From positions 461,437 to 525,436 of the forward strand of contig JBGSRU010000002.1 in NCBI GenBank assembly GCA_041737385.1: 64,000 bases of DNA, written 5' to 3'. Each line of letters starts with the position of its first letter. Positions within the stretch are counted from its first letter, which is position 1. The stretch comes from Candidatus Saccharimonadales bacterium (lineage in GTDB: Bacteria > Patescibacteriota > Saccharimonadia > Saccharimonadales > SZUA-47). Below the pieces are notes generated by a model. The model was not told the origin of the DNA and ran no database searches. It worked only from the letters and a program-made list of their open reading frames with translations. Positions 9,244-60,792 of this stretch are shown in pieces. Position numbers and translations under genes: made by a program.

Positions 9244-10512
9244 CTACTGGTTTAAGGATTGTTTTGCAGCTTCTAATTGAGGGTCGCGACTTGCTTTTCT
9301 GTCCTCGGTAGTTAGCTCTACTTTGCTATCAGGCTCAATGCCTTCTTTATCAATATTTTTACCACCCGGAGTGAACCATCGAGCAATAGTGACTTTTAAT
9401 GAGCCGCCGCCGTCTAAATTGATGAGCTGTTGAACACTGCCTTTACCGTAGCTCGTTTGACCAATTAATGTCGCTACATTGTTATCTTTGAGCGCTCCTG
9501 CGACTATTTCACTGGCGCTAGCACTACCCTTGTCGATAAGTACGACTGTTTTAACGTCTTTGAATATAGGATTCTTTACAGCAGTGAATGTTCTGATAGT
9601 CTCTCCGCCGCGTTTCTCTTCCAAAACAGTCGTTCCTTTCGTGAGCCATACATTGGAGACACCAACTGCTGCGTCAAGTAGCCCACCAGGATTGCCCCTC
9701 ACGTCTAGTACTACTTTTTTAACTCCTTCGTCCATGAATTCTTGGGCTGCTTTTTCAGTTAGCTCAGTTGTGTCAGTGCCGAAGCGGCCGATTGAGATTA
9801 TACCTACTCCGTTATCAATGTTCCATTCGACACTCGGTATATCAATCGTATCTCGAACGATAGGCACTTCAACTTGTTCGCCTTCACGAATAACCGTCAA
9901 CGTCACTGTTGATCCCTTTTCACCTCTGATCCGTTTAACCGCCTCTGAAACGGTGATATCTGTTGACGGCTCACCGTCTATTTCAGTAATAATGTCTTGT
10001 GGCCTGATGCCAGCTCTATCCGCTGGTGTGCCTTTGATCGGTGCGATAATAATGATGAAACTACCTTCTTTACCGAGCTCGGCGCCGATACCATCAAACG
10101 TTCCGTTCAAGTCTGCATTGAAATCTTGTGTTTCTTTGGCAGATAAATATTCTGTATATGTATCACCGACTGCGGCAACAGCGCCTTTTTTCAAACCATC
10201 GATAAGCTCATTTGCATCAATTTGCCCGTCATAATTGGCTTTCAACTTATCATAAATTTCTTCGAGTCCGTCAGTTGACAAGTCAGATGGTTGCTCCTGC
10301 GATACCACTGATGCAAGGTTCTCTGCACTATTTATGCTTATGCGACCGTCTCCAAACAGCCAACCAGCTGAAAAAATTACTGCTGCAGCAACAACAAAAC
10401 TAGCTCTCTTAACGATTTCGCGGCCTCGTTTTTTTACGTCAGCACTCACTTGCTCTTGATTTTGCTCCACTTTTTGGTCCGTCCTTATTCTCTTATTTAT
10501 GTCTAACCGCAA
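9244..10512 (-). CDS. S41 carboxy-terminal processing peptidase with PDZ domain
   Basis: N-terminal TM anchor, PDZ (GIRPQDIITEIDGE) and S41 core (DVRGNPGGLLD, VVLIDKGSASASEI). Overlaps the upstream M23 gene by 10 nt. Confidence 0.85.
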   Translation of the reverse strand: MRLDINKRIRTDQKVEQNQEQVSADVKKRGREIVKRASFVVAAAVIFSAGWLFGDGRISINSAENLASVVSQEQPSDLSTDGLEEIYDKLKANYDGQIDANELIDGLKKGAVAAVGDTYTEYLSAKETQDFNADLNGTFDGIGAELGKEGSFIIIIAPIKGTPADRAGIRPQDIITEIDGEPSTDITVSEAVKRIRGEKGSTVTLTVIREGEQVEVPIVRDTIDIPSVEWNIDNGVGIISIGRFGTDTTELTEKAAQEFMDEGVKKVVLDVRGNPGGLLDAAVGVSNVWLTKGTTVLEEKRGGETIRTFTAVKNPIFKDVKTVVLIDKGSASASEIVAGALKDNNVATLIGQTSYGKGSVQQLINLDGGGSLKVTIARWFTPGGKNIDKEGIEPDSKVELTTEDRKASRDPQLEAAKQSLNQ

Positions 10513-12091: not shown

Positions 12092-13036
12092 CTACCAATG
12101 TTTTAGTTTGAGGTGCTTTTCCATAGCAAGCATACTTGATACAGAACCAATCAAAATACCTACTAAAATAACGCTTAGCCAGAGAGTCACCATGATTGTT
12201 GGACTTGTAAAGAAAGCGAAGGTCTGCGCAAACTCAGGCTGATCAGATACTTTTCTCCCAAGAAAATAGATAAGTGAATAGACAGTTGTGTTTGCAATAA
12301 TCCCCGCAAAAACTCCATAAAGTGATGCTTCAACCAAGAAAGGTCCTCTGATGTAGTCAGGAGTCGCACCTATAAGCTTCATTATGCGAATCTCATCACG
12401 ACGTGTATAGATCGCCATCCGGATTGTGTTGAATATAATCATTATGGACACCGCAGATAATGTCACCGCAGATATAATACTTGCAGCTGTGATAAAGCCC
12501 TGCGCTGATGCGGCTTTATCAATTGTTGCTTGAGCATCTGTTTGACCAAGTGACACTGAATCCACAACTTCGCTATATTTTTCCTGCTCTGCTAAAGTTT
12601 TGATCTCAGGCATACGCTCAAGATCGCTAACAGTAATTCTCAGACTTGATGGAAGCACGTCGTCACCAGCAAGCGCTAAAGCCTGCAGAATACCGCTATC
12701 TTTATCAAAATCTCCAGCAAGGTCTTCCTGGGCTTGGTTTTGCGATACAAATTCTACTGATTCGACAAAGTCTAACGAACTTACTGCTGTTTGTAGGCCT
12801 GTTTTCTGCTGCTCACTACTATCGTCTTTAAAATAAATAGATGCTTTTAGGTCTCTCGCTAGCTCGTCGATTGCGTTGTTTGCCGTTACATTAAGCACTA
12901 CAGCGATAGATATAATAGTCAGCGCAACAACCATAACTGCAGTTGCCGCGATAGTGAGCCAAGCATTCCTAAAGAGATTTACAAATCCAGATTTAAGAAT
13001 TCGTATTGTTGTGTAATATCTGCGTGATCCATTCAT
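12092..13036 (-). CDS. ftsX: cell division permease-like protein FtsX
   Basis: 314 aa with one TM, a large extracytoplasmic loop and three C-terminal TMs. 4-nt overlap with ftsE. Confidence 0.85.
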   Translation of the reverse strand: MNGSRRYYTTIRILKSGFVNLFRNAWLTIAATAVMVVALTIISIAVVLNVTANNAIDELARDLKASIYFKDDSSEQQKTGLQTAVSSLDFVESVEFVSQNQAQEDLAGDFDKDSGILQALALAGDDVLPSSLRITVSDLERMPEIKTLAEQEKYSEVVDSVSLGQTDAQATIDKAASAQGFITAASIISAVTLSAVSIMIIFNTIRMAIYTRRDEIRIMKLIGATPDYIRGPFLVEASLYGVFAGIIANTTVYSLIYFLGRKVSDQPEFAQTFAFFTSPTIMVTLWLSVILVGILIGSVSSMLAMEKHLKLKHW

Positions 13037-13713
13037 AGCCTGTACTCCGAGCTTGCACGGTCACTACTCACCTTTCCATCTTTAATCGTTACTACTCGTC
13101 GTTTGAGCTTATCGACTATTTCTTTGTTGTGAGTCGTGAGCAGTACTGTTGTGCCGTATCTATTGATTTTTTCTAGTACGCGAATGACATCCCATGCATG
13201 TTTTGGATCAAGGTTTCCTGTTGGCTCGTCAGCAATAAGAATTTTAGGTTGACGTACAATAGCACGCGCAATCGCCACACGTTGTCTCTCGCCACCGGAT
13301 AGTTCAGATGGGTAATTATCATCTTTTCCTTTGAGGCCGACGATATCGAGGACTTTTGGCACAGTGTGTCGAATCTCTTTGTTGCTCATTCCCACAATCT
13401 CGAGTGCAAATGCGACATTCTCAAAAACCGTTCGGTTGCTAAGCAGTTTAAAATCTTGGAACACAACGCCAATCTTACGTCTCAGGAATGGAATGTCTTT
13501 GTCTTTTAATCGTTCGTAGTCAATACCGCCAACAATAATCTTACCGCTCGTTGGCTTTTCTTCCCTTGTGAGAAGTTTTAACAGCGTTGATTTGCCAGCG
13601 CCACTTGCTCCAACGATAACAACAAACTCCTTAGCCTCAACGTGTAAATTAATCCGCTCGATAGCGGGCCCTTTTCTATTATATGTTTTAGTTACTCTGT
13701 CTAATAAAATCAT
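13033..13713 (-). CDS. ftsE: cell division ATP-binding protein FtsE
   Basis: Walker A GASGAGKST, signature LSGGERQR, Walker B ILIADEPTGNLD. 226 aa, directly upstream of ftsX. Confidence 0.9.
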   Translation of the reverse strand: MILLDRVTKTYNRKGPAIERINLHVEAKEFVVIVGASGAGKSTLLKLLTREEKPTSGKIIVGGIDYERLKDKDIPFLRRKIGVVFQDFKLLSNRTVFENVAFALEIVGMSNKEIRHTVPKVLDIVGLKGKDDNYPSELSGGERQRVAIARAIVRQPKILIADEPTGNLDPKHAWDVIRVLEKINRYGTTVLLTTHNKEIVDKLKRRVVTIKDGKVSSDRASSEYRL

Positions 13714-24629: not shown

Positions 24630-25418
24630 TTAGCGACGTTTTTGGAGGGCTTCTAGCGTTAATTCTGTGCGAGATCGAGCATACTCACAGTGTTCACATG
24701 GGCCACCCATGGCAGCGGTACCTACTGCTGGCATCTTGTCGTTGTCAAGTGTTTTCTTCATTTGAATCAATACGCCATCCACCCAATCGCTTGATCCAGT
24801 GTGCGGGAATACATGGGTTTCAAACTCAACGACGTTATTGAAGCCTGCACGGTCTTTTGTGCCAGTTGCATAGACAAAGTAGCCGGTATCACTCACTTCA
24901 AACCCATTCTGCTTCAGTAACCACTGATATATTTCCATCTGCCGTCGATACATGTCTTGCCACCCGCCAACTGGACCAAGCTTTTTAACTGGCGTATCTT
25001 TAGCGGTTGCCTTGTAGTCTACTACTATGATTTTGCCATCAGCATCAACCCAAATATCATCAACGGCACCAAAGACGTGTAGGTTAGTTGGTTCATGTAT
25101 ATGGATTATGCCGACAAAGTTTTCACGCCACTGATCCATCTTCTCGTGTTTGAATGGAGTCGCTTTTATCTGATTATCTTTCATGAGCGGGTGCGGTTCG
25201 CCTTTTGCTCGGTAGACATCGAATTCTTTTTTGAACAACTCATCAATTGTCTTATTGATGTTGAACGGCGGACTGCTTGGACGTTTTATTTTCAACCGTG
25301 CATCAAGCCAAAAGCAGCGAGGACATTGCATGAAAAGCTCTATTTTACTCCTTGAAACTTTAAATGGTTCAGTTTGTCCAACTTGATACGGTTTGTTTCG
25401 CTCTTTCCAATAGTTCAT
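24630..25418 (-). CDS. PD-(D/E)XK nuclease, Cas4/RecB-like with Cys pairs
   Basis: Core motifs GAVDDIWV, IVVDYKA (D..[D/E]xK) and QMEIYQWLL, with CPRC near the N-terminus and CEHC near the C-terminus. Start placed at ATG 25418 (ATGA overlap with the upstream stop). Confidence 0.75.
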   Translation of the reverse strand: MNYWKERNKPYQVGQTEPFKVSRSKIELFMQCPRCFWLDARLKIKRPSSPPFNINKTIDELFKKEFDVYRAKGEPHPLMKDNQIKATPFKHEKMDQWRENFVGIIHIHEPTNLHVFGAVDDIWVDADGKIIVVDYKATAKDTPVKKLGPVGGWQDMYRRQMEIYQWLLKQNGFEVSDTGYFVYATGTKDRAGFNNVVEFETHVFPHTGSSDWVDGVLIQMKKTLDNDKMPAVGTAAMGGPCEHCEYARSRTELTLEALQKRR

Positions 25419-26257
25419 CTTTTGGTCCTGTCTAGCGTTATCCAACCCGACTCACTCGCGTGTAACAAAAAAGCTGCCAATAACCCAAAACTCATAGTCA
25501 CTAATAACCCCAGGATAAACCCAACTAACTGCACCTCGCCATCTCTAATGAGAAAAAAAATGCAATATGCTAGTCCTGGCAGAACTGTCATAAACAAATA
25601 AACGAACACTTTTACACTAATTAGTCTCGAATGAATTTTAATCGCTTCATCTATTGAATTCCTTACTAACAACTTTTTTTGGTAGCCTATCTGCTCATCA
25701 ACAGAAGTAAATTTGTAAATCCTTGCGACTTTATCTAAGAATAGACAAATGCCATCTTGCATTTCCTTGGGATTAATTTTTTCATTTGTCGTTAATATTA
25801 TCTGAGTTGAAATCATTTCCATATCAGTTTTCTTTAACTTATCACGAAAAATCAACATGACGTCAGGAGTAACGAATGATAACGCTTCGTTCTCTAGTCC
25901 ACTAGGAGCGTACAGCTGGAAAAATTTATCAAAATCGCCCTCAAGACTAACCCTTTGCGATTGGTCATATGTATCATATGCCGTTGCATACAAATATCTA
26001 TCTCTGTAATGAGAGTCTAGGAAAATGTTAGGCAAGGCTTTGTCGCCAGAAATAATTGTGTCGAAAACGTGCCTTCGTTTTTTTGAAAAATGAAAATGAC
26101 GATAGTAGGTTGAGCTTATTTTAAAAGTGAATCCGTCACTTTCATACGTTGCTTCAAGTATTTTCTCTGTTTTAGCATATTTTAGAGCCTTAATGATAAT
26201 TATGATCAAAACTAAAAATAATAAGAGAGATACCATATTAAACAGGTCTTCGTTCAT
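25415..26257 (-). CDS. hypothetical membrane protein (N-terminal TM, soluble middle, two C-terminal TMs)
   Basis: 280-aa ORF, translationally coupled to the downstream nuclease and 4 nt from rsmE. Faintly DUF3137-like, but that recognition is uncertain. Confidence 0.5.
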   Translation of the reverse strand: MNEDLFNMVSLLLFLVLIIIIIKALKYAKTEKILEATYESDGFTFKISSTYYRHFHFSKKRRHVFDTIISGDKALPNIFLDSHYRDRYLYATAYDTYDQSQRVSLEGDFDKFFQLYAPSGLENEALSFVTPDVMLIFRDKLKKTDMEMISTQIILTTNEKINPKEMQDGICLFLDKVARIYKFTSVDEQIGYQKKLLVRNSIDEAIKIHSRLISVKVFVYLFMTVLPGLAYCIFFLIRDGEVQLVGFILGLLVTMSFGLLAAFLLHASESGWITLDRTKR

Positions 26258-29636: not shown

Positions 29637-29667
29637 AAAAATCTCCTCGCGCGGATGAGGAGATTTT
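29637..29667 (-). terminator. strong intrinsic (bidirectional) terminator after the heliorhodopsin gene
   Basis: Perfect 11-12 bp inverted repeat aaaaatctcctc / gaggagatttt around an 8-nt loop gcgcggat. U-rich tract on the minus-strand transcript (GAGGAGAUUUUUGUU). Confidence 0.8.
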
Positions 29668-29688
29668 CATTGTTTATCGATACTAAAG

Positions 29689-30666
29689 TTACGGCCGCAA
29701 TGCGCCAGCAAACACTTGCCAAGCAAGCGCTGATTTAGCAACTAGAGAAAGAACCATATAGGCCTTTTCACCGAATATATAGTCTGTCCAGCGACCTTTG
29801 CCCTTGTACTGTAGATACATATTGACGGCAAAACTGCTGAAGAATACGAACATGCTGCCAAAAATATAGTAAACAAATGTTGGAATCTCACCTGCACCAT
29901 ATTGATTTGAGCCCCATAAATATAAACCGATAACTATCCATGGGAGTAATCCAACGATTGTACCAACATTGAAGCTAATCCAACTTGTTTTAGCTGTCGT
30001 TTGGTTGTGTATCTCCATAATCAACCCACATAGATTCATGACGAGCGTTGCTCCGAAGATCAGAATCAGTGTTGATAGATCAGAGACACCTACAAGATAT
30101 GCAATGCCGACCATCATAGTGCTCGCACTGATACCGTATTCATACCAACGAGCTTTGTTGATACCTTTTTCTAGATTAGCTTCGTATTTTTTACGATAGA
30201 TAGTTGCAATGTACAGGTGTGCGATTGCTGACATGAAGAAAAATGCAGCGACGAGGTATGAAAGGTTAACGTCAAACAGGTGTCTCGTTGCTGGAACCAA
30301 AACAGGTTCTGCTCCCCCGCTGCTGATCGTATCAACCGTTAGATAGTTGGTAGTAACTGGAAACAGACTGTCGCTTCTACTTAGAAGCACTACTGCAAGA
30401 CCTTGTGCTGCGTGCAGCGTAGCCATTGCCCAGTTCCATGCGTTTAATTGTTTAAACTTATCGGTTACTTTCTTCACAGTAGTGACTTTCGTCGCTTTTG
30501 TAGTTGTCTTCGCTAATTGAGTTTTCTTTGCTGTTTTAGCAGTCGACTTTACTGCGGTACTTGCTGATTTAGTTGTTTTTTTAGCAGCTGGTTTATTAGC
30601 TTTTGCTTTAGAAGGAACTTTTTTAGTTGTTGATTTTTTCTTGCGGGGTGTAGTTGTTGTAGCCAT
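29689..30666 (-). CDS. heliorhodopsin with Lys/Thr/Ala-rich N-terminal extension
   Basis: Seven hydrophobic segments. RWYEYGISASTMM and YLQYKGKGRWTDYIFGEKAYMVLSLVAKSALAWQVFAGALRP match, from memory, the signature TM3 (counter-ion Glu) and TM7 (Schiff-base Lys in SLVAKSALAW) of heliorhodopsin 48C12. The first ~63 aa hold 18 Lys + 1 Arg and no acidic residue. Confidence 0.85.
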   Translation of the reverse strand: MATTTTPRKKKSTTKKVPSKAKANKPAAKKTTKSASTAVKSTAKTAKKTQLAKTTTKATKVTTVKKVTDKFKQLNAWNWAMATLHAAQGLAVVLLSRSDSLFPVTTNYLTVDTISSGGAEPVLVPATRHLFDVNLSYLVAAFFFMSAIAHLYIATIYRKKYEANLEKGINKARWYEYGISASTMMVGIAYLVGVSDLSTLILIFGATLVMNLCGLIMEIHNQTTAKTSWISFNVGTIVGLLPWIVIGLYLWGSNQYGAGEIPTFVYYIFGSMFVFFSSFAVNMYLQYKGKGRWTDYIFGEKAYMVLSLVAKSALAWQVFAGALRP

Positions 30667-30727
30667 GGAAGAAATAATAGCATAGTTTGAGTCACACTGT
30701 AAGTGAACTTAACTCGGAAGCCCAGAG

Positions 30728-31990
30728 TTATATATTAATTTCAGCATCAAGTATTTCTTGTAAAAGCGAAATTATTTCATTTGGTCCAGCAGCGAGAGTA
30801 GTTGCAATAAGTTTTCTTGGTAATATATTATTGCCTTCAGGATCATCTGTATTTGCATCAACTGAGCTGTTCCAGTTTCCGCCAACTGATGCAATCGCTG
30901 CTGATATGGCTCTGGTAGCTGATACCGCAGACGATGTAGTATTGATATTATTGTCATCGTCATAAACACTTAAAACAGTCCACTGTGCGGTTAATCCCGG
31001 ATAGCCATCGCCAGCGAATACTGTACCGTCTTTAAGCTGATTATACTCACCATAATTGTCTAGCACAGGATATGTTGCTCCCGCTCCGGTGTTCCATGAT
31101 GTCGGTTCACCTGATAATTTCTTTAGAGATGAACAACACCCACCCGAACTAGCCGAACCACGAGCATCGGTAAATAAGACGAACTGAATGTCTGTTGCGC
31201 CGCTCAAATCTAATGCATCTCCAGGTCCATATACTGAGCCAAGTCGCATGCGTGCTAGTGATCCTGGCAAATGATCTTGAAAATCAGACGTAGATGAGCT
31301 GCCAGGTCCGTATCGTCTATCCCAGTTTGTGGCTGTTGTTTTATCACGAGTAAATGACACGGTTACATCGTATTTATGTTCTTGATTAAAGTTATTGGTT
31401 CCATATTGCAGGACAGCCACTTCAGCAGTTGGTGCGTTATCAATAATGTAGTTTATTGATGCGTCTACTGTGCTTTTACTCTGTAACCATTCAGATTCAC
31501 TCATAGAACCGGAATTATCCACAATAAATATAAACCGAACACTCGTATTACTGCCCGATGTATACGTTATCTTACCCTGAATTTCACGACTGTACAGAAG
31601 TTTTGCTTTGTTCTTTGTGTATACTCTACCAACACCCGCTATGTCCTGCTGGGTATTTGCTGTATTTGAAAAGCCTTTATGAATCACTTCGTATGTGATT
31701 TCATGTAGATCAGTCGTATAGAGCGTTGTTTCAGCGGTACCAAGGTAATTTAAGTCAATCTCATACTGCTCCTTGGCAAAGTCCATCGCTGATACGCTTG
31801 CTAATTGTGCTTCACGAATGAGTTCTTGGTTGAGTGTAGTCCGATATGCCTGAGTAGCAGCTACAATTGTAAGAGCACTAAACATAAAAACTATCGGTAT
31901 AAAGGTGATAATTGTTATCATCACGAATCCTTTTTCGTTCTTTTTGCTTTGTGTGCACTTTTCAGATTGGTTTGTGTATAAAAATTTCAT
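30728..31990 (-). CDS. prepilin-signal-like protein with vWA domain
   Basis: Leader MKFLYTNQSEKCTQSKKNEKG followed by FVMITIITFIPIVF (Thr, not Glu, at +5). MIDAS motif FIVDNSGSMS and a downstream LFTDA. 1-nt stop/start overlap (TAATG) with the upstream pilin gene. Confidence 0.7.
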   Translation of the reverse strand: MKFLYTNQSEKCTQSKKNEKGFVMITIITFIPIVFMFSALTIVAATQAYRTTLNQELIREAQLASVSAMDFAKEQYEIDLNYLGTAETTLYTTDLHEITYEVIHKGFSNTANTQQDIAGVGRVYTKNKAKLLYSREIQGKITYTSGSNTSVRFIFIVDNSGSMSESEWLQSKSTVDASINYIIDNAPTAEVAVLQYGTNNFNQEHKYDVTVSFTRDKTTATNWDRRYGPGSSSTSDFQDHLPGSLARMRLGSVYGPGDALDLSGATDIQFVLFTDARGSASSGGCCSSLKKLSGEPTSWNTGAGATYPVLDNYGEYNQLKDGTVFAGDGYPGLTAQWTVLSVYDDDNNINTTSSAVSATRAISAAIASVGGNWNSSVDANTDDPEGNNILPRKLIATTLAAGPNEIISLLQEILDAEINI

Positions 31991-32796
31991 TAGTTGATTT
32001 TCCTTATTGTGTGATTAACCACTGTCTGAACGTCCTTACCAAACACTTTGTCGCCTAAGGTCAGCTCGATTTCTATCTTATCTGCTGCTGATGGAAACGG
32101 CGTCTCAACGTTGCCTTCTGCAAAATATTTGACAGTAAAATCTAATACATTTTCACTTAATGGAGAATCTTTGCCGGTGCAATTGCCGGTACCAACAAAC
32201 GATGCTGGACAGGTTGTTCCTTTCGCTAGTCCACGACACGTTGCTGTTTCCGGAGCGCATGGATTTCCTGTTGTAAGGTCGATGCTACATAGTGGATATG
32301 CCGGTACAATAGTGCGCTTGTATAAAGTCGAGTATCTATTTGCTGTGTTAGGTCTCACAAAATAAAAGACATTATTTATGGCAAGCGGATTAGCCGTAAT
32401 GCTCGATGAGCTACAGTTATTGACACGTTGCCTAATTATATTTCGACTATCATCTCTTCTAGCCGTATCAATTGATATCTCGTTAATGATTAGTGTTTGC
32501 GGGTCTGTATTGTACGTCAATCCACCCGATGGTGCATTTGGATCTGATAGCCTTCCTTCAAGACTTTCTCCATAAGCGATAGTAAATAATAACTCATCCT
32601 GCAAATTTATAAGTATCGTTTGTCCACTTGCTCGAAGAGTTGTACGTGCTGATTCTGCAAGTGTACTGGCATATTGAGTGAACAGCGCACTAACAAGAAT
32701 AATCACTACTATCGATACGAGTGGCAAAGCGATCATTATTTCAACTAGCGAGTAACCACTTTGATAATTTTCATGCTTAGAATTTTTGTGTGTCAT
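31990..32796 (-). CDS. type IV pilin-like / pseudopilin protein
   Basis: Class III signal MTHKNSKHENYQSG followed by YSLVEIMIALPLVSIVVIIL (Glu at +5). 268 aa. Confidence 0.75.
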   Translation of the reverse strand: MTHKNSKHENYQSGYSLVEIMIALPLVSIVVIILVSALFTQYASTLAESARTTLRASGQTILINLQDELLFTIAYGESLEGRLSDPNAPSGGLTYNTDPQTLIINEISIDTARRDDSRNIIRQRVNNCSSSSITANPLAINNVFYFVRPNTANRYSTLYKRTIVPAYPLCSIDLTTGNPCAPETATCRGLAKGTTCPASFVGTGNCTGKDSPLSENVLDFTVKYFAEGNVETPFPSAADKIEIELTLGDKVFGKDVQTVVNHTIRKIN

Positions 32797-32797
32797 A

Positions 32798-34321
32798 TTA
32801 ATCAGTCAATCCATATTTTCTTACATACGACACATACTCTACTTTGTATCGCTGATCAAAAGCATCATATTCAATTACCGAAGTAATTTTGAGTAGGGTT
32901 GGATTATCAACGTCTCCATCAGAATCAGAATCAACATAATTACCTGGTGTTGTTGATGATGTTGTTGATGAGTTTATGATAAGTCTTGGAGCCGGATACC
33001 TTGTTGCAATTCTCCTACCATTACCCGAAACATATGAAATGCCGATCGCAATATTATTTCCTGGAACCCAGCCTGGACGGTTTACTATTTCTTGAATAAT
33101 GCTTGTTATATTAACCTCAGTATTTGTATTATTTTGTCCAGCAGACCAGTTTGGGGGGCTCCATGTGACTGACGCGACTGTACCAACCTTTCCATCGGTC
33201 GCAATTGAATCAATTGCTCTATCTACACCATACGCCCCTGACCACACGGGAGCAGTGTCTGCATTTACCGCTTTAATAAGCATCGTAACGCCACCGGATT
33301 GAGACGATTGAGAAGTAAAGTTCAAATAAGCATTGGTAATCGTTGCACCTTGAGTTGCTGTAACCCCATCAAACGTGATTCCCGTAGATTGGCGTCCACG
33401 GTTTCCATCGGTTGTAAATTCTATTGGAGAGTCACTGAAATAAAGTTGTCCTGGAGAAACAGCTGCATCAGTGCCATGTTGCTCAACGGTATCACCGCTC
33501 TGACCTGCTGAAAAAGCTTCAAGTTCAGATATTACCGCAAAGTTGTTGTTTTCTGCATTGACAAAATATAAGCGCCAGTGCCTGAACGCAGTAGTGTTTG
33601 AGCTAACATCAATCACTTGAGGGTACTCACCGCTTACACAGGGAAAAGGACCATTGTCGGCTAAGCCACTCCGAATTGTCGTCCATCCGTTGTTGTTTGA
33701 GGGTGAGTTATTTTTTGCCTCAATACGAAAGTTACTTGCTCCATACCCACAGGCATACCAGTTTATGCGAATTGAAGCAACCGTCTGTGCCGATCCAAGA
33801 TCAATTGACGGTGAAGCAAGGTTATCCGGATTATTAGCGTATCGGCTGTAGGTATAATTTGTATATATGTTATCTCTGATCTGAGATAGATTAAACCAAT
33901 CGCCTGTTGCATCGTGTTGATTAATACTGTTGATTTCTGGACCTGTTACGTAGGCTGTATCACTACTTACAGATTGAGAAAATGTTTGTGTTGTTGTGGT
34001 TGGAGGAGATATGACACTTGCAGGTTCAGCGTAGACTTTTGCGGTGGCATTTTTGAGTAATTCTGACGCTGCTTCACCAGAAAAATCCTCAACCTCATAA
34101 GTATTTGCTACATCGCCAATCGGAACATTGTCGTATTCTAAATTAATATAGTCTTGTACTTTTTTAAAAGCGAGAGACCCTGCAGTTGCACGTAAATTTG
34201 ACTTGGCGTTTAGTGTTGAAGCATTAATAACAATGGAGCTAATAACTGTAAGCAGTAAGGACAAGAGAAGTAACGATACAAGCAACTCTACAATAGTAAA
34301 ACCGTTATTTTTTTTGTGCAT
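32798..34321 (-). CDS. large modular type IV pilin-like protein with discoidin (F5/8 type C)-like module
   Basis: Class III signal MHKKNNG followed by FTIVELLVSLLLLSLLL. Central segment IDLGSAQTVASIRINWY...NFRIEAKNN...GWTTI...WRLYFVNAENNNFAVISELEAF resembles discoidin/galactose-binding-like domains. A further beta-rich C-terminal module follows. Confidence 0.75.
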   Translation of the reverse strand: MHKKNNGFTIVELLVSLLLLSLLLTVISSIVINASTLNAKSNLRATAGSLAFKKVQDYINLEYDNVPIGDVANTYEVEDFSGEAASELLKNATAKVYAEPASVISPPTTTTQTFSQSVSSDTAYVTGPEINSINQHDATGDWFNLSQIRDNIYTNYTYSRYANNPDNLASPSIDLGSAQTVASIRINWYACGYGASNFRIEAKNNSPSNNNGWTTIRSGLADNGPFPCVSGEYPQVIDVSSNTTAFRHWRLYFVNAENNNFAVISELEAFSAGQSGDTVEQHGTDAAVSPGQLYFSDSPIEFTTDGNRGRQSTGITFDGVTATQGATITNAYLNFTSQSSQSGGVTMLIKAVNADTAPVWSGAYGVDRAIDSIATDGKVGTVASVTWSPPNWSAGQNNTNTEVNITSIIQEIVNRPGWVPGNNIAIGISYVSGNGRRIATRYPAPRLIINSSTTSSTTPGNYVDSDSDGDVDNPTLLKITSVIEYDAFDQRYKVEYVSYVRKYGLTD

Positions 34322-34328
34322 TATAGTT

Positions 34329-34334
34329 ATTATA
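34329..34334 (-). promoter_or_regulatory. -10 box (TATAAT) 7 nt upstream of the pilin-operon ATG
   Basis: Minus strand reads TATAAT-aactata-ATG. The -35 region is poor (GTGATT). Implies a leaderless or near-leaderless transcript. Confidence 0.4.
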
Positions 34335-34425: not shown

Positions 34426-34728
34426 TTACTCACTAACTTCGACACCGTTCCAGAATGCATAATGGTTTGAGAAATCTTTTTTTACTCGTTCAATTGCACT
34501 AGGTAGCGGAGACGCGTAGCGAAAGGCTGCATCTTTTGCTGTTTGGCCGTCAACAGTAACATCATAATACGTGCATTCACCTTTCCACGGACATGTATAC
34601 GGGGTATCTGATTGTTTGAAATACTCCATGTTCAGTGAGTCACCTGGAAAATACCAATTTCCTTCAATGTAAATTAAATCTTCTTTATTTGCTTCAGCAA
34701 CAACTTGATCGTTCCAGACTGCTTTCAT
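34426..34728 (-). CDS. DUF427 domain protein
   Basis: 100 aa. VWNDQVVAEA...IYIEGNWYFP...CPWKGECTYYDV matches the DUF427 pattern as I recall it. Confidence 0.65.
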   Translation of the reverse strand: MKAVWNDQVVAEANKEDLIYIEGNWYFPGDSLNMEYFKQSDTPYTCPWKGECTYYDVTVDGQTAKDAAFRYASPLPSAIERVKKDFSNHYAFWNGVEVSE

Positions 34729-34797
34729 CTTCTACTCCTTGTTTAAGTGACTACTTAAACATTGTATCAGACTCAAGAGTGTAATATCATACTGCTT

Positions 34798-35358
34798 ATG
34801 AATAAAAAATCAATTTCTAAAAACGGACAAAACAACTTATCGCTCACACGCACTGCTCGTACACTTTTCTTTTTTGTAAGTATTTTTGCTTCTTCAATCG
34901 TCACCTTCACGAGTAGCAATCTCATTTTTGGCGAGGCTATAACAAATCGTTGGATCTTATTTTCAGCATTATTACTCGCTACAATTATTGCGTGGGTTAT
35001 TGGCTATAAGTCAAAAACTTCGTTTAAACGTATTGCTACCCTAATACTCAGCGCTGTGTTAATTATCTTTGCTGGATTCATGACCTATTACGAACGTGGT
35101 ATGGCGAGCAATTCAACTTTATTTTATGCATTGCCGCTACTTGTAGTCGCAACCTTAAAAAATCGTCATCTGTTACTCGCAACGGCCGGCTTATCAGCCG
35201 GTACTTATGCACTTGCGTCTGTAAAATATTTTAACGATTTCTTTAATGAAGGCTACAAAGTTCAATTGTGGGGCAATATAGTGCTTTACGCAGGAACTAT
35301 ATTCACCGTTGCATGGCTGATTATGATTCTCACTAATCTTCGCAAAGACTCTGAATAA
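34798..35358 (+). CDS. hypothetical multi-pass membrane protein
   Basis: About 5 hydrophobic segments. Start placed at ATG 34798 (MNKKSISK); the track start 34762 is a TTG. Stop abuts the lysS stop. Confidence 0.5.
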   Translation: MNKKSISKNGQNNLSLTRTARTLFFFVSIFASSIVTFTSSNLIFGEAITNRWILFSALLLATIIAWVIGYKSKTSFKRIATLILSAVLIIFAGFMTYYERGMASNSTLFYALPLLVVATLKNRHLLLATAGLSAGTYALASVKYFNDFFNEGYKVQLWGNIVLYAGTIFTVAWLIMILTNLRKDSE

Positions 35359-52567: not shown

Positions 52568-55500
52568 CTACCTTATGTTTCTGCCTTCACACCATGCATG
52601 AGTACCTGCGTTGAAAGTTCCTGTACTTGTAAGGAATGTAACTGTCGTAATTGCATTTGTCGTATTTGACCAGTTGCCTGTTCCACTATAGCGACGGTTA
52701 TTTGTCCCTATGCCTGTTACTCCACTATAAGACCAGTCTACAATTTTTTGAGTATCCACAAAGTTAGTAATACGTAGTGTTGCACTTGCAGGTATTACTC
52801 CGGTGTCAAGACCCGTTAGTTGTATCTCGCTGTCTGAACTATCTTGAGCGTCACCAACAGCATTGTTAATTATATCGTACTCATTCCATCCGTAAGATGC
52901 TGCACCTGAATCACCGTTAAAACGTAAGTATATGCCGCCTGCTACCGATCGACCCTTGGTGTCTATTCTGCATTCAATATATTCAGTTCCTGATGCTAAG
53001 TTTAATGTAATTGTTCCACTCGCTGCACTAAGTGTTGATTCTGCTAGAACACGCTTTGAAGCACAATCAGACCAAAATCCACCTTCATAACAACGAGATT
53101 TACCGTCAGCAGAATTGTAGTAACTTCCTCCGTTAATACCCGTTGGATCTCCAGTTGTGTTTTTTGTATCTAGCACGAATAATACGCCAACAGCATCTGC
53201 CGTAATCGATCCGACTCTAACAGTTCCAGTACTTGTATCGATGCTAAAGTAACTTAAGCCTCCAACATTTCGAATATCTAAAGCTGTTGAACTAGTGGAT
53301 TGAATTTGTAATGCTCCTGTATTTGCTACAGTGAATACGGCTCCACCGTTTCTTTGAAGATTAATGAGATTCCCAGTAGCCGAAGTTTTGTTGACGGCCA
53401 ATACATCATTGTTTGAAGCATCCGTCTGGATGACTCCCGCAGCTAGCCTCAAATAACCACAGGTATTTGTATTACTTAGACAAATTGTACCGGCTTCATC
53501 TGGCAACGATACTGCCCTTGCAACTGTTGCGTTTGAGTTGATTGTTGATTGGCCTAAAACGAGTCCAGCGCTAAAGGTTTTCGTTCCACTGAAGGTTTGA
53601 GAGCCAGCAAGCTGAGCAACGTTAGCAGATAATCTTGCATCGGCTACAGTACCAGTCGATACATTTGTTCCGTTAAGAGCTGTAAGCCCTGAGCCATCTC
53701 CAGTAATTGCTGTACCTGCGATTGTACCAGTTACTGTAATATTTCCAGTAACGCCTACACTTGCACTGAAAGTTTGGCCACCATTCAGCAATGCAACGTT
53801 AGTTGAGAGTCTTGCGTCAGCGACAGTCCCGCTAGATATATTAGTACCATCCAATGTTGTTAGTCCGGAGCCGTTGCCACTGAATGCATTTGCTGATACG
53901 GTGCCGCTAAACGTTGGAGCGTTTCCTATCGTAATTGCTCCGCAAGTACCGCCGGTACCGAGAGTAATTGTATTGCCACCGCCGCTTAGATTACCACTTC
54001 CTGACGGACATATTAATGTAATGTTTCCTTGTACTGCGGTGTTAGCAGCTGAACCGTATATTACGTTGAGTGCGTTGCCGCTGAATGTCAAACCATTACC
54101 TGTTAGATCTGTAAATGCTTCGCCGTTGACTGTTAAGTTCTGGCCAGTTGTTACAGTTAGTCCAGCGCCAAATGTTTTAAGACCAGAGAATGATTGTGAT
54201 CCGGTTAACAATGCCACATTAGTAGATAATCTTGCGTCATCTAGAGTTCCTGAGGCAATGTTTGATGCATTGACATTGGTAATACTTCCACCGGATATAT
54301 TTGCACCATTTAAGTTAGTTAAGCCTGAGCCGTTTCCGCTAATAACTCCTGCTACGGAAAGCCCATTAGATACAATTACGTCACCTGTTGAGCCATCAAT
54401 ATTTATTCTCGCTAGACCATTCGTGATCAAGTTCAGATCAAACGTATCTGCTGTTCCTAGGTTTGCATCTATACCAAAACTGTTTCCGCTCTGAATAAAC
54501 GGCTGTGCAAATCCTGCTGTTAGTTCATCTGTTTTTTCCGCAATTGTCCAAGACTGTCCAGCAAGACTTAATTGTGCTCCACTACTTCCTGCTTGTGAAC
54601 ACACAACTTCGTAGTACTCATTATTTAGTGTTGTTTGTATGTAAGCGCTTGCTGAGTTAGAACTATTACCATCGGTCACATTTCTTACATATGAGTATGA
54701 TCCACCAGGTGTGTTATATGTAGTACCGTTAAGAAGTATACGGCAATAGATATTGTTTCTATTGGCGCCGCCATTGAAGCCACTAATATTATAGCTAATC
54801 TTATACCATCCTGGATTATCTATATAGACACGGGTATTATCAACTGAATTACTGTGTGCAAAACCTGGATCTTTTTTGGATTCAGAGCCCCAAGGAAGTG
54901 GCGTTGGAGTTGGATCATTAAGATCTGTTCCTCCAGCTGAATCATACACTTGAATAACTGCAACTCCTAAATTAACTGGAGTGCCTGTGAACGACTGCCA
55001 TGTCAGTCCGTCAAATCCTTGGAACGCTGTTCCGTTCCACCTAATGGTTCCGGCTACAGTGGCTGTTGAGTTCCCGATTACTAATCCATTATCAAATGTG
55101 TTTACTCCGCTAAATGTTTGTGTACCGTCTAACAAAGAAACATTTCCAGACAATCTACCATCATCAAGACTACCGGTTGCTATATTTGATGCACTTAACC
55201 CAGTTATTACTGAGCCTGAGATATTTGCTCCATCTAGATTAGTAATTCCGGATCCGTCACCACTAATAACTCCAGATACAGATAGTCCTCCGCCAATCTC
55301 TGTGTCGTTTCCGTTAGACTGGAGCTTTAATGCAGTAGTGCTTTGAATGCTTCCATCGCTAATCGTCGTTGAGCCAGCGCCGACAACAACTCCGCCTAAG
55401 AAATACCCTTGAAAGAATCGGTTGCTCTGCGAAGTATAGTCTGTTGTTGTTGCGCCTATATTCTGCACACTATACTTAGTCACTGTTCGTGCGCTTTCAA

Positions 55501-58500
55501 ATGTGATTGAAGGAGACACTATATATGTACCCGTCCCAGGATCCGACGCAATTCTCGTATAATAATCTTGCCCTATATTATCTATAAGTATCACGTCATT
55601 TAATTCAAACGAATCAGCAGCTAACGTAAGCGTCGTAGTGTTTGTACCTGTGCCACTAGTCGTACCCGTTGTTGCAGTAGCTGATTGATTAGCAACAAGA
55701 TCACCGCTGAGAGTAGTTAGTCCGGCAATCGAAACATCTCCACTATTAGATATGCCTATTCTCTCAATATTATTAGTTATGATAGATAAACCATTATTAT
55801 CACTAGTTCCAAGTATCGCTGGGCTTCCAAATGAATTACCATTCTGAACGAATGGTTGTCCTGATCCACCTGCGCCAATAGAACGAATTGCTTGGACGTA
55901 ACTTCCGCTAAAGACAATTGTATTTGTCGCATTAGAGACTTGTTGAGCCCACTGCAAAGTTATGTTGCCAGCTGTAGGGCCGTTTTTCACTGATCCCGTG
56001 ATTTCATATAAATCATTTGCGGCATTACCAGATATAAGACCTGTTGAGATTCCACATCCAAGCTGCGCAATCGAAGTTGCACCTTCTGGATCGCTGTAAG
56101 CAACCCGGCAAACTGCACCTGAAGGAGCAGCAACAGCAAATTTGATGTCAGGAACGGCTGCTGCATTAGCCTGAACAACAAACCTATACGTCCATTCTTC
56201 GTTTGGTCCTATTGAGAAAGTTAATTCATCATCATTTTGCAGGGTTATATTACTTATAACTGATTCATTAACTTGCTTAACTTTAGATACTATATTTTGA
56301 CTAGCGCCCGATCCCCCACCGCCAGATGTTAGAGATCTCCAAGTCGCTCCATCAAATCCTTCAAAGTCTAGACCGGTCCAACGAATTGTACCAGCTGTAG
56401 TAGATGAACTATTTCCAACCGTAAGACCTCCTGACGCAGTTACATTCCCGGTGCTATCAACACTAAAAGTATCAGTTCCATTGTTTTGTACTTTGAATTT
56501 TCCATTTGATCCGCTTAAAATATCGATTATAAAATTGCTATCAATCGCTGTGTCTGCGAGACTGATTGTAAAATCTTTATTGTCTGCAGTTAGAATTGAG
56601 GCAGAAAGTGAGTTGTCATATACGTCTTGAAGGGTGCTTAAACCGCCACTCCCGCTACCTGCACCTCCGTCATACTCAACGCTCCAGTAAACAGTAAAGT
56701 CATTTGTGTTAACAGGAAGAAAACCAGCACTAGTATCAAAAGCTAGCCCAATGGTATCTCCAGCAGAAAATGTTACAACTCCTGGGTTTAGAACAGAAGC
56801 TGACTGACGATTTGTAGTTGAATCCATGTCACAGACCGTTGAGCCAACTCGAGCTCCGTTAACCGTCCACCTAAGAGCGAGTGTGCCAGCGGTTATATTT
56901 GCAGTGTTTTTTATTAAACAAGTTCTGAAGCTACCATCTGCAGGTGCAGTGAAGCCCGTAACTCCTGCGACATTTGAAACAGCGGTTGCAGAAGTGAACA
57001 CCAAGGTTTCGACTATAGCACCCGTTGCGTTTGCTGGGGCATTTTGTAAGCCTGAAATAAAGCTTGCAGTTGTTCCTGTATAGGTACCGCCACTTCCACC
57101 ACCAATACAATCTTTCCATTCCCCATCTTCATAACAACGGAATTTACCGAGCGCGCTATTGTAGTACATTGCTCCATCAACGCCAGTTGGATCGGCAATA
57201 TCTGTTTTGGTATCGAGAACTAATAGCGTCCCTGCTGTGTCAGCTTGGCCGATATTTACATTCAGCCCGCTTTGTATGTTTATCCCCCCACTACCACTTT
57301 GTAGTAGTGTTGCCGCGGAGCCTACCGAGCCACCGAACGTTGCTTGTGAATTCAGCGTATCAACTTTCAAGAATGAGCTACCAAGTGTGTCTTGAACATC
57401 AAAAGCATTTACTGAATTTGTGTTATTTTGTGCCAAAACTGAACCTTTCAGTGTAGTTGAACCGTTTGTACCGAACTCTGCAACCACATTACCGTCTGTG
57501 ATGATTTGTAAGTTATTTGTATCTGTTGTACCGAGTATTGCCGTTGAGCCAAATGCATTCCCATTTTGTTCAAAACTAGTTCCACTTCCGCCGCCCGCTG
57601 CAACTCCAGTTATGGATATGGTATCAAGCCCAAAATCGTTATTCCAAACACTTCCAACTGAGCCAAGCGTCACCAAGAATCGAACTTGAGTTGAAGCATT
57701 TGATATCACTCCCGTTAAATCAAGATTTTCAAGATTCCACTGTTGTGTACCTCCTGTTGCGACATCTGGGCCACCTGATCCGTATGTACCGCGAGTTACC
57801 CAGCCAGCACTAGCTTCGTTAGTTTGAACTTCAACAATAGCAACATTGTCATTTCCTCTTTGGTTCCAGTAAAAATCAACAGTCCAATCATTTGTACTAG
57901 CGTCTATCACCGTGTTGTGAGTCATCGTGAAAGTATCGCCGCCAGCTGCAGGTGAAGTCGCTTCGGTATATACATAGCCATCTGGATTACCTCCTTGACC
58001 CGATGTAGGTCCAACATCTGTTGATGGAGTGTCATTTGTATCGTGAGACCAGGCTCTTGCGGTTCCTGAAGCGTTTAAGCCGTTAGAGCCGTTATCAGAT
58101 ACAAAGCTCCATGCAGATTCATCGGCATCGTTATCATTATCAAAAGTGTACGGCCCATAAACACCCGGACCGCCAGCACTTCCACTACCTAAAGCCGTTA
58201 ATGATTTCCAAACTATTCCATCATAACCCTCAAAATCAAATCCTGTCCATCTAATCATTCCAGCATTGGCATTCGATGTATTGCCAATTTGCAAACCGGC
58301 ACTTAGTATCGTTTCTCCAGATTTCAGAATGCTAAACACATCGACTCCATCACCTTGAAGTTGCAAAAGATTACCTGTACCAACTTGATTTATACGAAGC
58401 GCTGCTAGTGCGCTGCTAACCGTTTGGACATTAGCTGGTGCAAGTTGTGCGAAATCATCAGCAGTCTTAGCATTTCCTGCAGAGTCAACAAGGGCACCCG

Positions 58501-58942
58501 CCCTAAGAGCATACGGCACTGCGGTCAATTTAAATCGAGGTGTCATTTCTCCGTCGCTGTTGACGTTCATTGTTAGCCACATATCTTGATCCCATGGTAT
58601 TGAACCGCCAAACGCTGTTGTGTCGCCTAGATAAACACTGAAATAACCATTCTTAACCGTAACTGCAGAACCACCTGTTCTGGTTTCTGTCCACCAGTTA
58701 GTTCCAGCAGATGGATCATCATAAATCTTGAACTCGATATTGTACGACCCATCAGGAACCAACCCTCCAGTACTCGTTAATAATCTTCCCTGAAAGTTAA
58801 GTGTAGAAGAGGTTGCAGCGGTTGTGTTACTCGTGGATCCAAGAACAGTAACAGATAGAATAAGCAAAATAAAAAGTGGCAAAAATATACCTTTAAAAGA
58901 TATATTTTGCCACAGAGTGTGCCTTTGCTTATAGTTAGTCAT
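52568..58942 (-). CDS. giant (2124 aa) membrane-anchored surface protein built from tail-fibre-like repeats
   Basis: N-terminal signal anchor and an LNFQGRL...VPYALRA domain. MAM-like module at aa ~262-446 (ends NDFGLDTISI). Three copies of GTIRW(T/N)G..F(E/Q)G(F/Y)DG..W.S(L/F)T and four or more copies of G(D/N)GSGLT.L(N/D)G(A/T)N(I/V)S.G.(L/V)(D/A)DARLS.NVA.L.G.Q.FSG.KTF. Two Cys-pair motifs DPTG..G..YYNS..GK.RCYE.G.W.DC. Confidence 0.75.
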   Translation of the reverse strand: MTNYKQRHTLWQNISFKGIFLPLFILLILSVTVLGSTSNTTAATSSTLNFQGRLLTSTGGLVPDGSYNIEFKIYDDPSAGTNWWTETRTGGSAVTVKNGYFSVYLGDTTAFGGSIPWDQDMWLTMNVNSDGEMTPRFKLTAVPYALRAGALVDSAGNAKTADDFAQLAPANVQTVSSALAALRINQVGTGNLLQLQGDGVDVFSILKSGETILSAGLQIGNTSNANAGMIRWTGFDFEGYDGIVWKSLTALGSGSAGGPGVYGPYTFDNDNDADESAWSFVSDNGSNGLNASGTARAWSHDTNDTPSTDVGPTSGQGGNPDGYVYTEATSPAAGGDTFTMTHNTVIDASTNDWTVDFYWNQRGNDNVAIVEVQTNEASAGWVTRGTYGSGGPDVATGGTQQWNLENLDLTGVISNASTQVRFLVTLGSVGSVWNNDFGLDTISITGVAAGGGSGTSFEQNGNAFGSTAILGTTDTNNLQIITDGNVVAEFGTNGSTTLKGSVLAQNNTNSVNAFDVQDTLGSSFLKVDTLNSQATFGGSVGSAATLLQSGSGGINIQSGLNVNIGQADTAGTLLVLDTKTDIADPTGVDGAMYYNSALGKFRCYEDGEWKDCIGGGSGGTYTGTTASFISGLQNAPANATGAIVETLVFTSATAVSNVAGVTGFTAPADGSFRTCLIKNTANITAGTLALRWTVNGARVGSTVCDMDSTTNRQSASVLNPGVVTFSAGDTIGLAFDTSAGFLPVNTNDFTVYWSVEYDGGAGSGSGGLSTLQDVYDNSLSASILTADNKDFTISLADTAIDSNFIIDILSGSNGKFKVQNNGTDTFSVDSTGNVTASGGLTVGNSSSTTAGTIRWTGLDFEGFDGATWRSLTSGGGGSGASQNIVSKVKQVNESVISNITLQNDDELTFSIGPNEEWTYRFVVQANAAAVPDIKFAVAAPSGAVCRVAYSDPEGATSIAQLGCGISTGLISGNAANDLYEITGSVKNGPTAGNITLQWAQQVSNATNTIVFSGSYVQAIRSIGAGGSGQPFVQNGNSFGSPAILGTSDNNGLSIITNNIERIGISNSGDVSIAGLTTLSGDLVANQSATATTGTTSGTGTNTTTLTLAADSFELNDVILIDNIGQDYYTRIASDPGTGTYIVSPSITFESARTVTKYSVQNIGATTTDYTSQSNRFFQGYFLGGVVVGAGSTTISDGSIQSTTALKLQSNGNDTEIGGGLSVSGVISGDGSGITNLDGANISGSVITGLSASNIATGSLDDGRLSGNVSLLDGTQTFSGVNTFDNGLVIGNSTATVAGTIRWNGTAFQGFDGLTWQSFTGTPVNLGVAVIQVYDSAGGTDLNDPTPTPLPWGSESKKDPGFAHSNSVDNTRVYIDNPGWYKISYNISGFNGGANRNNIYCRILLNGTTYNTPGGSYSYVRNVTDGNSSNSASAYIQTTLNNEYYEVVCSQAGSSGAQLSLAGQSWTIAEKTDELTAGFAQPFIQSGNSFGIDANLGTADTFDLNLITNGLARINIDGSTGDVIVSNGLSVAGVISGNGSGLTNLNGANISGGSITNVNASNIASGTLDDARLSTNVALLTGSQSFSGLKTFGAGLTVTTGQNLTVNGEAFTDLTGNGLTFSGNALNVIYGSAANTAVQGNITLICPSGSGNLSGGGNTITLGTGGTCGAITIGNAPTFSGTVSANAFSGNGSGLTTLDGTNISSGTVADARLSTNVALLNGGQTFSASVGVTGNITVTGTIAGTAITGDGSGLTALNGTNVSTGTVADARLSANVAQLAGSQTFSGTKTFSAGLVLGQSTINSNATVARAVSLPDEAGTICLSNTNTCGYLRLAAGVIQTDASNNDVLAVNKTSATGNLINLQRNGGAVFTVANTGALQIQSTSSTALDIRNVGGLSYFSIDTSTGTVRVGSITADAVGVLFVLDTKNTTGDPTGINGGSYYNSADGKSRCYEGGFWSDCASKRVLAESTLSAASGTITLNLASGTEYIECRIDTKGRSVAGGIYLRFNGDSGAASYGWNEYDIINNAVGDAQDSSDSEIQLTGLDTGVIPASATLRITNFVDTQKIVDWSYSGVTGIGTNNRRYSGTGNWSNTTNAITTVTFLTSTGTFNAGTHAWCEGRNIR

Positions 58943-59922: not shown

Positions 59923-59952
59923 ACTTACACTCTACTCCCATCTACTCCGCTT

Positions 59953-60019
59953 TGCAAAGGTCAGACCTCCGCGACTAAAAATAGGACAAATAACACCTTG
60001 CGGAGGTCTGACCTTTGCA
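59953..60019. repeat. perfect 20-bp inverted repeat (REP doublet) with 27-nt spacer
   Basis: tgcaaaggtcagacctccgc ... gcggaggtctgacctttgca. Each arm contains the near-palindromic core aggtc-n-gacct. Confidence 0.9.
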
Positions 60020-60082
60020 GATAAGATGGGGCTAAGTTAAGGAGGTTTTGTTAATTGTTGTGGGGGTGGGGTTAGCTTAGGG

Positions 60083-60220
60083 TTATTGGAGGATTTGGTA
60101 GTCAAAGGTGTAGATTGTGTTGGCTGTTGGGGTGTCTACGGAAGTGGATTGTGAAGCCTGTAGTTGTGGTTTCCACAAAGTATCTGACGGTAGCGCTGTT
60201 TATGCCTTTTGGCGTTAGAG
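60083..60220 (-). pseudogene. decayed duplicate of the 3' end of the tail-fibre gene
   Basis: The minus strand translates to LTPKGINSATVRYFVETTTTGFTIHF, then a frameshift near 60140-60146, then (T)SVDTPTANTIYTFDYQILQ-stop. The intact gene end reads LTPLTAEAATLDYFVTRNVNGFKINFTSAPSATTTYSFDYQILQ-stop. DNA next to the stop is near-identical (tta[c/t]tggaggatttggtagtcaaag). Confidence 0.75.
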
Positions 60221-60786: not shown

Positions 60787-60792
60787 GACTAC

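Follow-up and report, generated by a model that had tools for sequence, protein, structure and literature searches.

A modular minor-pilin adhesin cassette beside a long-tailed heliorhodopsin gene in Saccharibacteria: most likely a lineage-specific adjacency

The position of a heliorhodopsin gene directly behind three pilin-like genes raises the question whether a light sensor and a set of adhesive pilins are expressed as one system or simply lie side by side. This arrangement was found in a 64-kb stretch of DNA from Candidatus Saccharimonadales (Saccharibacteria), hereafter called the window, in which four consecutive open reading frames (ORFs) on the minus strand encode proteins of 507, 268, 420 and 325 amino acids (aa). 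The genes were given the working names pil507, pil268, vWA420 and HeR (for heliorhodopsin), and all coordinates are positions in the window (Table 1). Homologues of HeR assign the window to the Saccharibacteria, with a top HeR identity of 72-74%. An initial annotation had described the four genes as a single promoter-to-terminator unit and as a candidate new system in which the light sensor is co-expressed with the pilus set or controls it. Comparative tests gave no support to this proposal. In our judgement the locus probably comprises two adjacent, separate units, namely an orphan minor-pilin tip-adhesin cassette and an independently transcribed, stand-alone heliorhodopsin gene.

The layout, the junctions and the strand of the four ORFs were recovered as initially annotated. 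At the junction of pil507 and pil268 the stop and start codons are separated by 1 nucleotide (nt; TAAtATG), and at that of pil268 and vWA420 they overlap by 1 nt (TAATG, position 31990). Such junctions are typical of translational coupling, which is predicted here within the three-gene cassette. The gap between vWA420 and HeR measures 61 nt. As would be expected of a single operon, the four genes lie on the same strand with short gaps and no internal terminator; a predicted promoter was located directly before the last gene. An extended -10 element, TGcTATTAT, is located in the 61-nt gap and ends 7 nt 5' of the start codon of HeR, which has no Shine-Dalgarno sequence. The cassette itself starts in the same geometry. 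Its TATAAT box ends 7 nt before the pil507 ATG, as had been noted initially, in a leaderless-type arrangement without a Shine-Dalgarno sequence, and similar -10 boxes were found 6-11 nt 5' of the first cassette gene in five further loci (L004, L082, L088, L092 and L093). The element in the gap had been overlooked; given its 7-nt distance to the start codon of HeR, the layout is not that of a single-promoter unit even on the terms of the initial annotation. A scan of 8 kb indeed yielded no strong terminator other than the hairpin directly after HeR. This terminator is not conserved: HeR is followed by a similar one in L005 and L012 and by a hairpin in L004, and none was found in L002, where 9 nt separate HeR from a tRNA methyltransferase gene.

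Conservation of the element before HeR was analyzed in related loci. HeR loci were represented by 80 species-level representatives (L001-L080), and higher L numbers include loci reached from the cassette side. A metagenome scan with the vWA alignment gave just 11 loci, too few for statistics, and these were pooled with contig look-ups. All 12 cassette-linked relatives have a TAnnnT box 6-10 nt 5' of the start, which is conserved as MATT...; TGn precedes the box in 11 of them, and the spacing is exactly 7 nt in 10 and 10 nt in an eleventh. The full TGnTAnnnT element was present 6-8 nt before an in-frame ATG in 43 of the 77 HeR loci fetched, whatever gene was located on the 5' side (MsrA, DUF427, LysRS or another), and in 29 of the 31 closest HeR loci (L001-L032). 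The background frequency for other genes in the HeR loci was 13.6% (152/1114), which suggests that leaderless-type promoters are a common operon-start signal in the phylum, with HeR strongly enriched among the genes that carry one. An artefact of start-codon choice was considered as an explanation of the HeR promoter and rejected, the MATT... start being conserved and the -10 spacing identical across loci. Judged by the sequence, HeR forms a transcription unit of its own with a predicted leaderless or near-leaderless mRNA. Within the window, an extended -10 start was observed for the minus-strand ORFs at 2777-3844, 13033-13713, 25415-26257, 29689-30666 and 60484-60786.

The distribution of the two units was determined next to each other and separately. 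Three pilin-like genes directly 5' of HeR were found only in the six closest loci with intact upstream DNA (L002-L006 and L012; HeR identity 65-74%), and four metagenome loci of the same clade were cassette-linked as well. About 70 of the 80 species-level HeR loci have no cassette, and a motif scan of all 1407 ORFs in HeR loci that are 80 aa or longer detected no other pilin-like genes within 4 kb of HeR. In this survey of neighbourhoods the adjacency was thus not conserved beyond one clade, and it did not recur beyond shared ancestry and synteny, contrary to what a functional linkage of the kind initially proposed would lead one to expect. The cassette, in turn, was found intact (proteins of about 515, 270 and 405 aa, same tight junctions) without HeR in L081, L082/83, L085/86, L092 and L095. 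These HeR-free cassettes are located in unrelated neighbourhoods with convergent or unrelated genes on the 3' side and represent at least four contexts. Because the three genes co-occur with the same tight junctions in such neighbourhoods, the cassette is regarded as a unit of inheritance. The pil507 and vWA420 families are small, with about 70 clusters at an identity of at least 38%, and stem from environmental Saccharibacteria.

Neighbour-joining of the vWA pilins placed the HeR-linked cassettes in one clade and the unlinked ones in its sister clade. Since all HeR-linked cassettes belong to one clade, the sequences point to a single juxtaposition event followed by vertical descent in highly syntenic genomes. 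In the window, the DUF427 gene is located directly 5' of the cassette, so that the cassette lies between DUF427 and HeR and appears to sit within an older DUF427-HeR neighbourhood. The spacers between cassette and HeR mostly measure 32-105 nt and reach 240-580 nt in L091 and L094. On the opposite strand, divergent from the DUF427/cassette side, an ORF at 34762-35358 encodes a 198-aa multi-pass membrane protein without a family match; counterparts of 45-58% identity occupy the same position in the cassette-bearing clade only (L002-L006, L012, L088, L089 and L093).

The 325-aa protein is, by its sequence, a bona fide and intact heliorhodopsin, as had been annotated. It was matched by PF18761 (E=1.5e-88, 296.7 bits, cut-off 26.7) and NF038020 of NCBIfam (E=6.7e-89, 297.6 bits, cut-off 100). 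Residues 74-325 form the core of seven transmembrane helices; its retinal Lys (in SLVAK) and its counter-ion Glu (in RWYEY) correspond to those of TaHeR in an alignment, and the best match among solved structures was TaHeR (6is6, E=3e-65). With TaHeR, 48C12 and the heliorhodopsins described by Bulzu et al. 2021 (PMC8612252) it shares this canonical core with retinal Lys and counter-ion Glu; it differs from them in a 73-aa polybasic N-terminal tail and in the pilin cassette on the 5' side. The tail (residues 1-73; 30448-30666, minus strand) is rich in Lys, Thr, Ala and Ser and contains 23 Lys or Arg residues and one Asp or Glu. It is presumably cytoplasmic, since the polybasic composition fits a cytoplasmic N-terminus. 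The composition also resembles that of histone H1. All 12 cassette-linked HeR proteins carry tails of 58-87 aa, compared with a median of 18 aa in other Saccharibacterial HeR proteins, and thus represent a heliorhodopsin clade with a long polybasic, presumably cytoplasmic tail. A strict tie between polybasic tail and cassette was rejected as proof of coupling: tails occur without a cassette in L031 (59 aa) and L019 (42 aa), and the linked cases constitute one clade.

HeR loci without the cassette share the backbone GreA-LysRS...DUF427/MsrA-HeR-TrmA-RsmE. In 16 of the 80 loci, for example in L007 (8679-9167), L008, L009, L038 and L045, HeR has the peptide methionine sulfoxide reductase gene MsrA (PF01625) at position -1 or -2, and DUF427 is located 5' of HeR in about 18 of the 80, in some cases accompanied by a DUF308/HdeD-like membrane protein. 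RsmE was found no more than three genes away from HeR in 20 loci and TrmA in 15. Saccharibacterial HeR genes are characterized by a conserved extended -10 element of predicted leaderless type and by MsrA and DUF427 as their most recurrent neighbours. Redox and two-component genes have been named in a published analysis of heliorhodopsin contexts (PMC8612252), and a role in oxidative stress has been hypothesized (PMC8612252, PMC9166423). MsrA is a gene of the oxidative-stress type, and the MsrA/DUF427 context fits this hypothesis.

The initial annotation had assigned prepilin signals to all three cassette proteins. The assignment held for pil507, whose N-terminus is the class III signal MHKKNNG/FTIVE with Glu at +5 (Glu5); the N_methyl profile matched it above the Pfam cut-off (E=2.6e-6) and matched 30 of 34 pil507 homologues. 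In pil268 the motif is present as well (...YQSG/YSLVE, Glu at +5), with an N_methyl score just below the cut-off (E=4.7e-4, 20.1 bits, cut-off 21.2). Both proteins are, as judged by these motifs, class III signal proteins with Glu5. The N-terminus of pil268 is ComGE-like in NCBIfam; apart from N_methyl no Pfam family was detected for this protein even at E<=0.5, and no sequence match was found in PDB. Among the members of the cassette, pil268 is the most conserved across variant cassettes, with orthologues of 39% (L005) and 24% (L006) identity. In vWA420 the leader and the hydrophobic helix are present (G/FVMIT) and, as annotated, +5 is occupied by Thr, which is kept across 36 homologues; with the N_methyl profile pil268 and vWA420 score below the cut-off or give no match.

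Structures were available as AlphaFold (AF2) models for pil507 and vWA420 and were compared with Foldseek. The model of pil507 (pLDDT 85.1) has an alpha1 helix of 50 residues (10-59) and a beta-sheet, followed by two beta-sandwich modules, a CBM32/F5-8-type-C lectin-like one at about 157-270 and a second one at about 300-460. The profile F5_F8_type_C_2 (PF22633) scored 26.3 bits (E=1.2e-5) on pil507, below its cut-off of 27.8, and matched 31 of 34 family members at E<=0.01; four members were matched by PF00754 as well. The first sandwich matched isolated CBM32 domains with TM values of 0.66-0.80. According to model and family profile, pil507 has a predicted CBM32/F5-8-type-C module, in agreement with the discoidin-like module annotated at first.

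For vWA420, Pfam VWA and VWA_2 gave partial matches below the cut-off (E=3e-4). The residues of the metal-ion-dependent adhesion site (MIDAS), D158-x-S160-x-S162, T198 and D275 are invariant in an alignment of 36 sequences. The model (pLDDT 80.6) combines a pilin module, with alpha1 at 20-78 and a beta-sheet at 84-142, and a vWA module at 150-417, and Foldseek matched it with a probability of 1.00 to integrin I-domains, vWF A3, the pilus-tip adhesin SpaC and Streptococcus sanguinis PilB. The match to S. sanguinis PilB (7ba2) was a full-length structural one of about 400 columns. Sequence and model agree that vWA420 carries a predicted vWA domain with a complete MIDAS, so that this assignment of the initial annotation, like the pilin and discoidin ones, was borne out by profile searches, alignments and structure models. 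The lollipop fold of pilins, a long alpha1 helix on an antiparallel beta-sheet, is predicted for pil507 and vWA420 in their models. Cap subunits such as GspK and PilX lack Glu5, and Thr at +5 in vWA420 matches such subunits. vWA420 is likely a tip or cap adhesin.

At the same genomic site, three loci have variant cassettes in which all pilin modules are retained and the heads are different (L005, 6963-9888; L006, 7341-9791; L012, about 6774-9750). Their first pilin is cut to the pilin module, with 143 or 129 aa (range 129-150 aa), and their third pilin has no vWA domain. In L005 the third pilin (583 aa) carries a beta-sandwich of the type that comes second in pil507 and another domain, and in L006 (469 aa) it carries a repeat-rich head with a weak PilX_N match (E=0.01). 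Because the heads differ in these three loci, the combination of discoidin, vWA and HeR is not what is conserved, as far as the sequences tell. Head swapping of this kind fits adhesins for host or surface recognition under diversifying pressure. A cassette that moves as a unit and exchanges its heads (vWA, CBM32, beta-sandwich, repeat-rich) is a good candidate for a host-range determinant.

One further protein, P0075 (596 aa), has nothing but the vWA region in common with vWA420 (46% identity). Its operon (L084, 1782-9103), from an unrelated organism, is of the classical minor-pilin type GspH/FimU-PilW-PilX-...-PilY1-like-PilE. P0075 was rejected as a distant member of the cassette, only the vWA region being shared and the operon being of the classical fimU-pilVWXY1E type. 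Because this vWA region sits in an unrelated minor-pilin operon, the vWA head would appear to circulate among pilus-tip loci of different lineages.

Two described systems resemble the cassette most closely. By function, the nearest analogue is the S. sanguinis tip complex, which consists of PilA, PilB (vWA) and PilC (lectin) (PMC8179133, PMC9934059). In both cases a monoderm-type organism has three minor pilins, of which one carries a grafted vWA/MIDAS module, one a lectin and one is small, and adhesion of the tip to protein or glycan is predicted. Beyond the folds, no sequence homology is detectable (10-12% identity). The lectin is of the CBM32/F5-8-type-C kind here and concanavalin-A-like there; the cassette has an additional beta-sandwich, and its vWA pilin lacks Glu5, unlike PilB. 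Moreover, the S. sanguinis genes belong to the pil locus, whereas the cassette is detached from assembly genes and known from genes alone. In agreement with the initial annotation, a scan of every sizeable ORF of the 64-kb window detected neither a pilus ATPase nor a platform protein nor a prepilin peptidase.

The closest phylogenetic precedent is given by PilX1 and PilX2 of Nanosynbacter lyticus TM7x, a member of the same phylum (PMC12206443). TM7x has pilin-only loci far from its assembly genes pilB, pilC and pilD, and its modular minor pilins, with additional C-terminal domains (beta-jelly-roll, beta-propeller), act as host-binding adhesins, PilX2 being needed for host binding (PMC12206443). 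The modules of the present cassette are vWA and CBM32 instead. The type IV pilus machinery is reported to be nearly universal in Saccharibacteria (PMC12206443). The GspI-GspJ-GspK and PilV-W-X(-Y1) sets, which form priming and tip complexes of type IV filaments, are also comparable in that a small set of minor pilins or pseudopilins is co-encoded, one of which lacks Glu5 and has a large additional domain. These sets comprise four or five genes, compared with three here, and adhesins of the PilY1 type carry the vWA domain on a separate non-pilin protein, whereas it is fused to a pilin in vWA420. None of the GspI/J/K, PilW and PilY1 profiles was significant on the cassette proteins.

The reading as two units may be put together as follows. 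After processing by a prepilin peptidase encoded elsewhere, the three cassette proteins would assemble into a tip complex on a type IV pilus, the machinery of which is likewise encoded elsewhere. The Glu5-less vWA pilin would serve as the cap, and the complex would present the MIDAS and the CBM32 lectin to ligands on a host bacterium or a surface. Glycan and protein ligands may be bound, and the binding heads would be exchangeable. The extended -10 promoter of HeR would give rise to a separate, leaderless or near-leaderless mRNA that ends at the intrinsic terminator. The cassette would have entered a pre-existing DUF427/MsrA-HeR-TrmA-RsmE neighbourhood once, in one lineage of Saccharibacteria, and would have been kept there by vertical descent.

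Several observations weigh against two independent units. The promoters and leaderless starts are predictions from the nucleotide sequence, and assembly into a pilus and the location at its tip are inferred by analogy. In the 61-nt gap no terminator was called, and its predicted folding is no stronger than that of shuffled sequence (z=-1.1), as the initial annotation had already seen no convincing hairpin there, and the longer spacers of L088, L091 and L094 contain no terminator either. Since neither the window nor its relatives have a terminator between cassette and HeR, transcripts from the cassette promoter could possibly read through into HeR and lead to co-expression. Of the two signals that would separate the units, a transcription start and a terminator, the gap thus contains a predicted promoter, and a terminator was found in no relative. 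In the 12 genomes no gene was ever inserted at the cassette-HeR junction, and the outer flanks did change (ABC transporter and DUF427 upstream, NUDIX downstream). The shared tail of 58-87 aa weakly suggests that HeR of the linked clade is somewhat specialised. The uninterrupted junction and the long tail are weak support for a link, both of them coming from a single clade.

On these grounds the four genes could be taken as one operon and one system, with HeR co-expressed with the pilus-tip adhesins or regulating them, and attachment tuned by light. The common strand, the 61-nt gap free of a terminator, the strong terminator found in the window only after HeR, the distinctive long polybasic tails of the clade, and an adjacency kept in 12 genomes at HeR identities of about 57-74% with no inserted gene all speak for it. 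We nevertheless consider a single operon improbable. An extended -10 element is conserved directly before HeR also in cassette-free Saccharibacteria, and the linkage is confined to a single clade inside a block in which everything is syntenic. At least four contexts have the cassette but no HeR, and about 70 species have HeR but no cassette; the adhesion modules beside HeR are not conserved, spacers of 240-580 nt are found in L091 and L094, and the terminator after HeR is not conserved. A literature search for heliorhodopsin and pilin found no paper linking the two; a link between them is absent from the literature searched, in which the published heliorhodopsin contexts are redox and two-component genes (PMC8612252). 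A coupling of HeR to an adhesive pilus tip, by read-through or through a tail acting on pilus assembly or nucleic acid, with light-tuned attachment as the outcome, seems a shade less probable still. If true, it would be the first heliorhodopsin output pathway in an episymbiont and, in such ultrasmall organisms, would tie light sensing to host attachment; such a payoff is unlikely because the evidence argues for a lineage-specific adjacency. Most likely, the locus is a modular minor-pilin adhesin cassette beside an ordinary, if long-tailed, heliorhodopsin gene, and not a new light-controlled pilus system.

The nature of the cassette can also be read differently. Its products might be pseudopilins of another type IV filament, Com-like for competence or similar to type II secretion, with the vWA and lectin modules serving DNA uptake, secretion or the priming of assembly. 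Saccharibacteria are naturally competent (PMC12206443), the Glu5-less third subunit recalls the GspI-J-K tip complex (PMC8179133), and the best N-terminal matches in NCBIfam were ComGE, ComGF, ComGC and Gsp pseudopilins. All of these matches are far below the cut-off, however, and they span only the generic N-terminal helix. The vWA/MIDAS and CBM32 modules are typical of ligand-binding adhesion (PilB, SpaC, integrins), their swapping in close relatives fits host-recognition adhesins better than core parts of secretion or uptake, and in TM7x host binding is mediated by the modular minor pilin PilX2 (PMC12206443). Pseudopilins are accordingly held to be about as improbable as a four-gene operon. 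Still more remote, in our estimate, is that the three products are membrane-anchored surface proteins that form no filament and use the prepilin-like helix as an anchor. This would account for the lack of assembly genes in the window and for N_methyl matches of the 268-aa and 420-aa proteins that are below the cut-off or missing, but a complete pilin fold is seen in the models of pil507 and vWA420, two of the three proteins have a conserved Glu5, and a three-gene set with a Glu5-less member mirrors known tip complexes. Orphan pilin loci, moreover, are normal in Saccharibacteria. A minor-pilin adhesin cassette thus remains the preferred assignment.

Table 1. Positions of the cassette genes, HeR, their predicted signals and the adjacent gene in the 64-kb window.
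Feature	Position	Strand	Description
pil507	32798..34321	-	507 aa, modular minor pilin
pil268	31990..32796	-	268 aa, minor pilin
vWA420	30728..31990	-	420 aa, bimodular pilin, no Glu5
HeR	29689..30666	-	325 aa, heliorhodopsin
-10 box TATAAT, predicted cassette promoter	34329..34334	-	sequence read
Extended -10 element TGcTATTAT, predicted HeR promoter	30674..30682	-	sequence and conservation
Intrinsic terminator 3' of HeR	29638..29667	-	12-pair stem, 6-nt loop, then TTTTGTT
DUF427 gene (context)	34426..34728	-	Pfam E=6.6e-23

The remaining sequence of the window was also inspected. An Rfam scan of the whole window gave nothing at the gathering threshold, so that no riboswitch or small RNA was detected in the vWA420-HeR gap, and no tRNA was found in a tRNA search. 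A giant minus-strand ORF of 2124 aa (52568-58942), without a Pfam match at E<=0.001, adjoins parA/parB. An IS200-like transposase gene (Y1_Tnp; 59311-59922) adjoins an ORF of 1035 aa with a Peptidase_S74 domain, which is of the phage tail-fibre/endosialidase chaperone type. The G+C content is 0.515 at 62-64 kb and about 0.41 elsewhere in the window. The region 59311-63948 may be the remnant of a mobile element or prophage.

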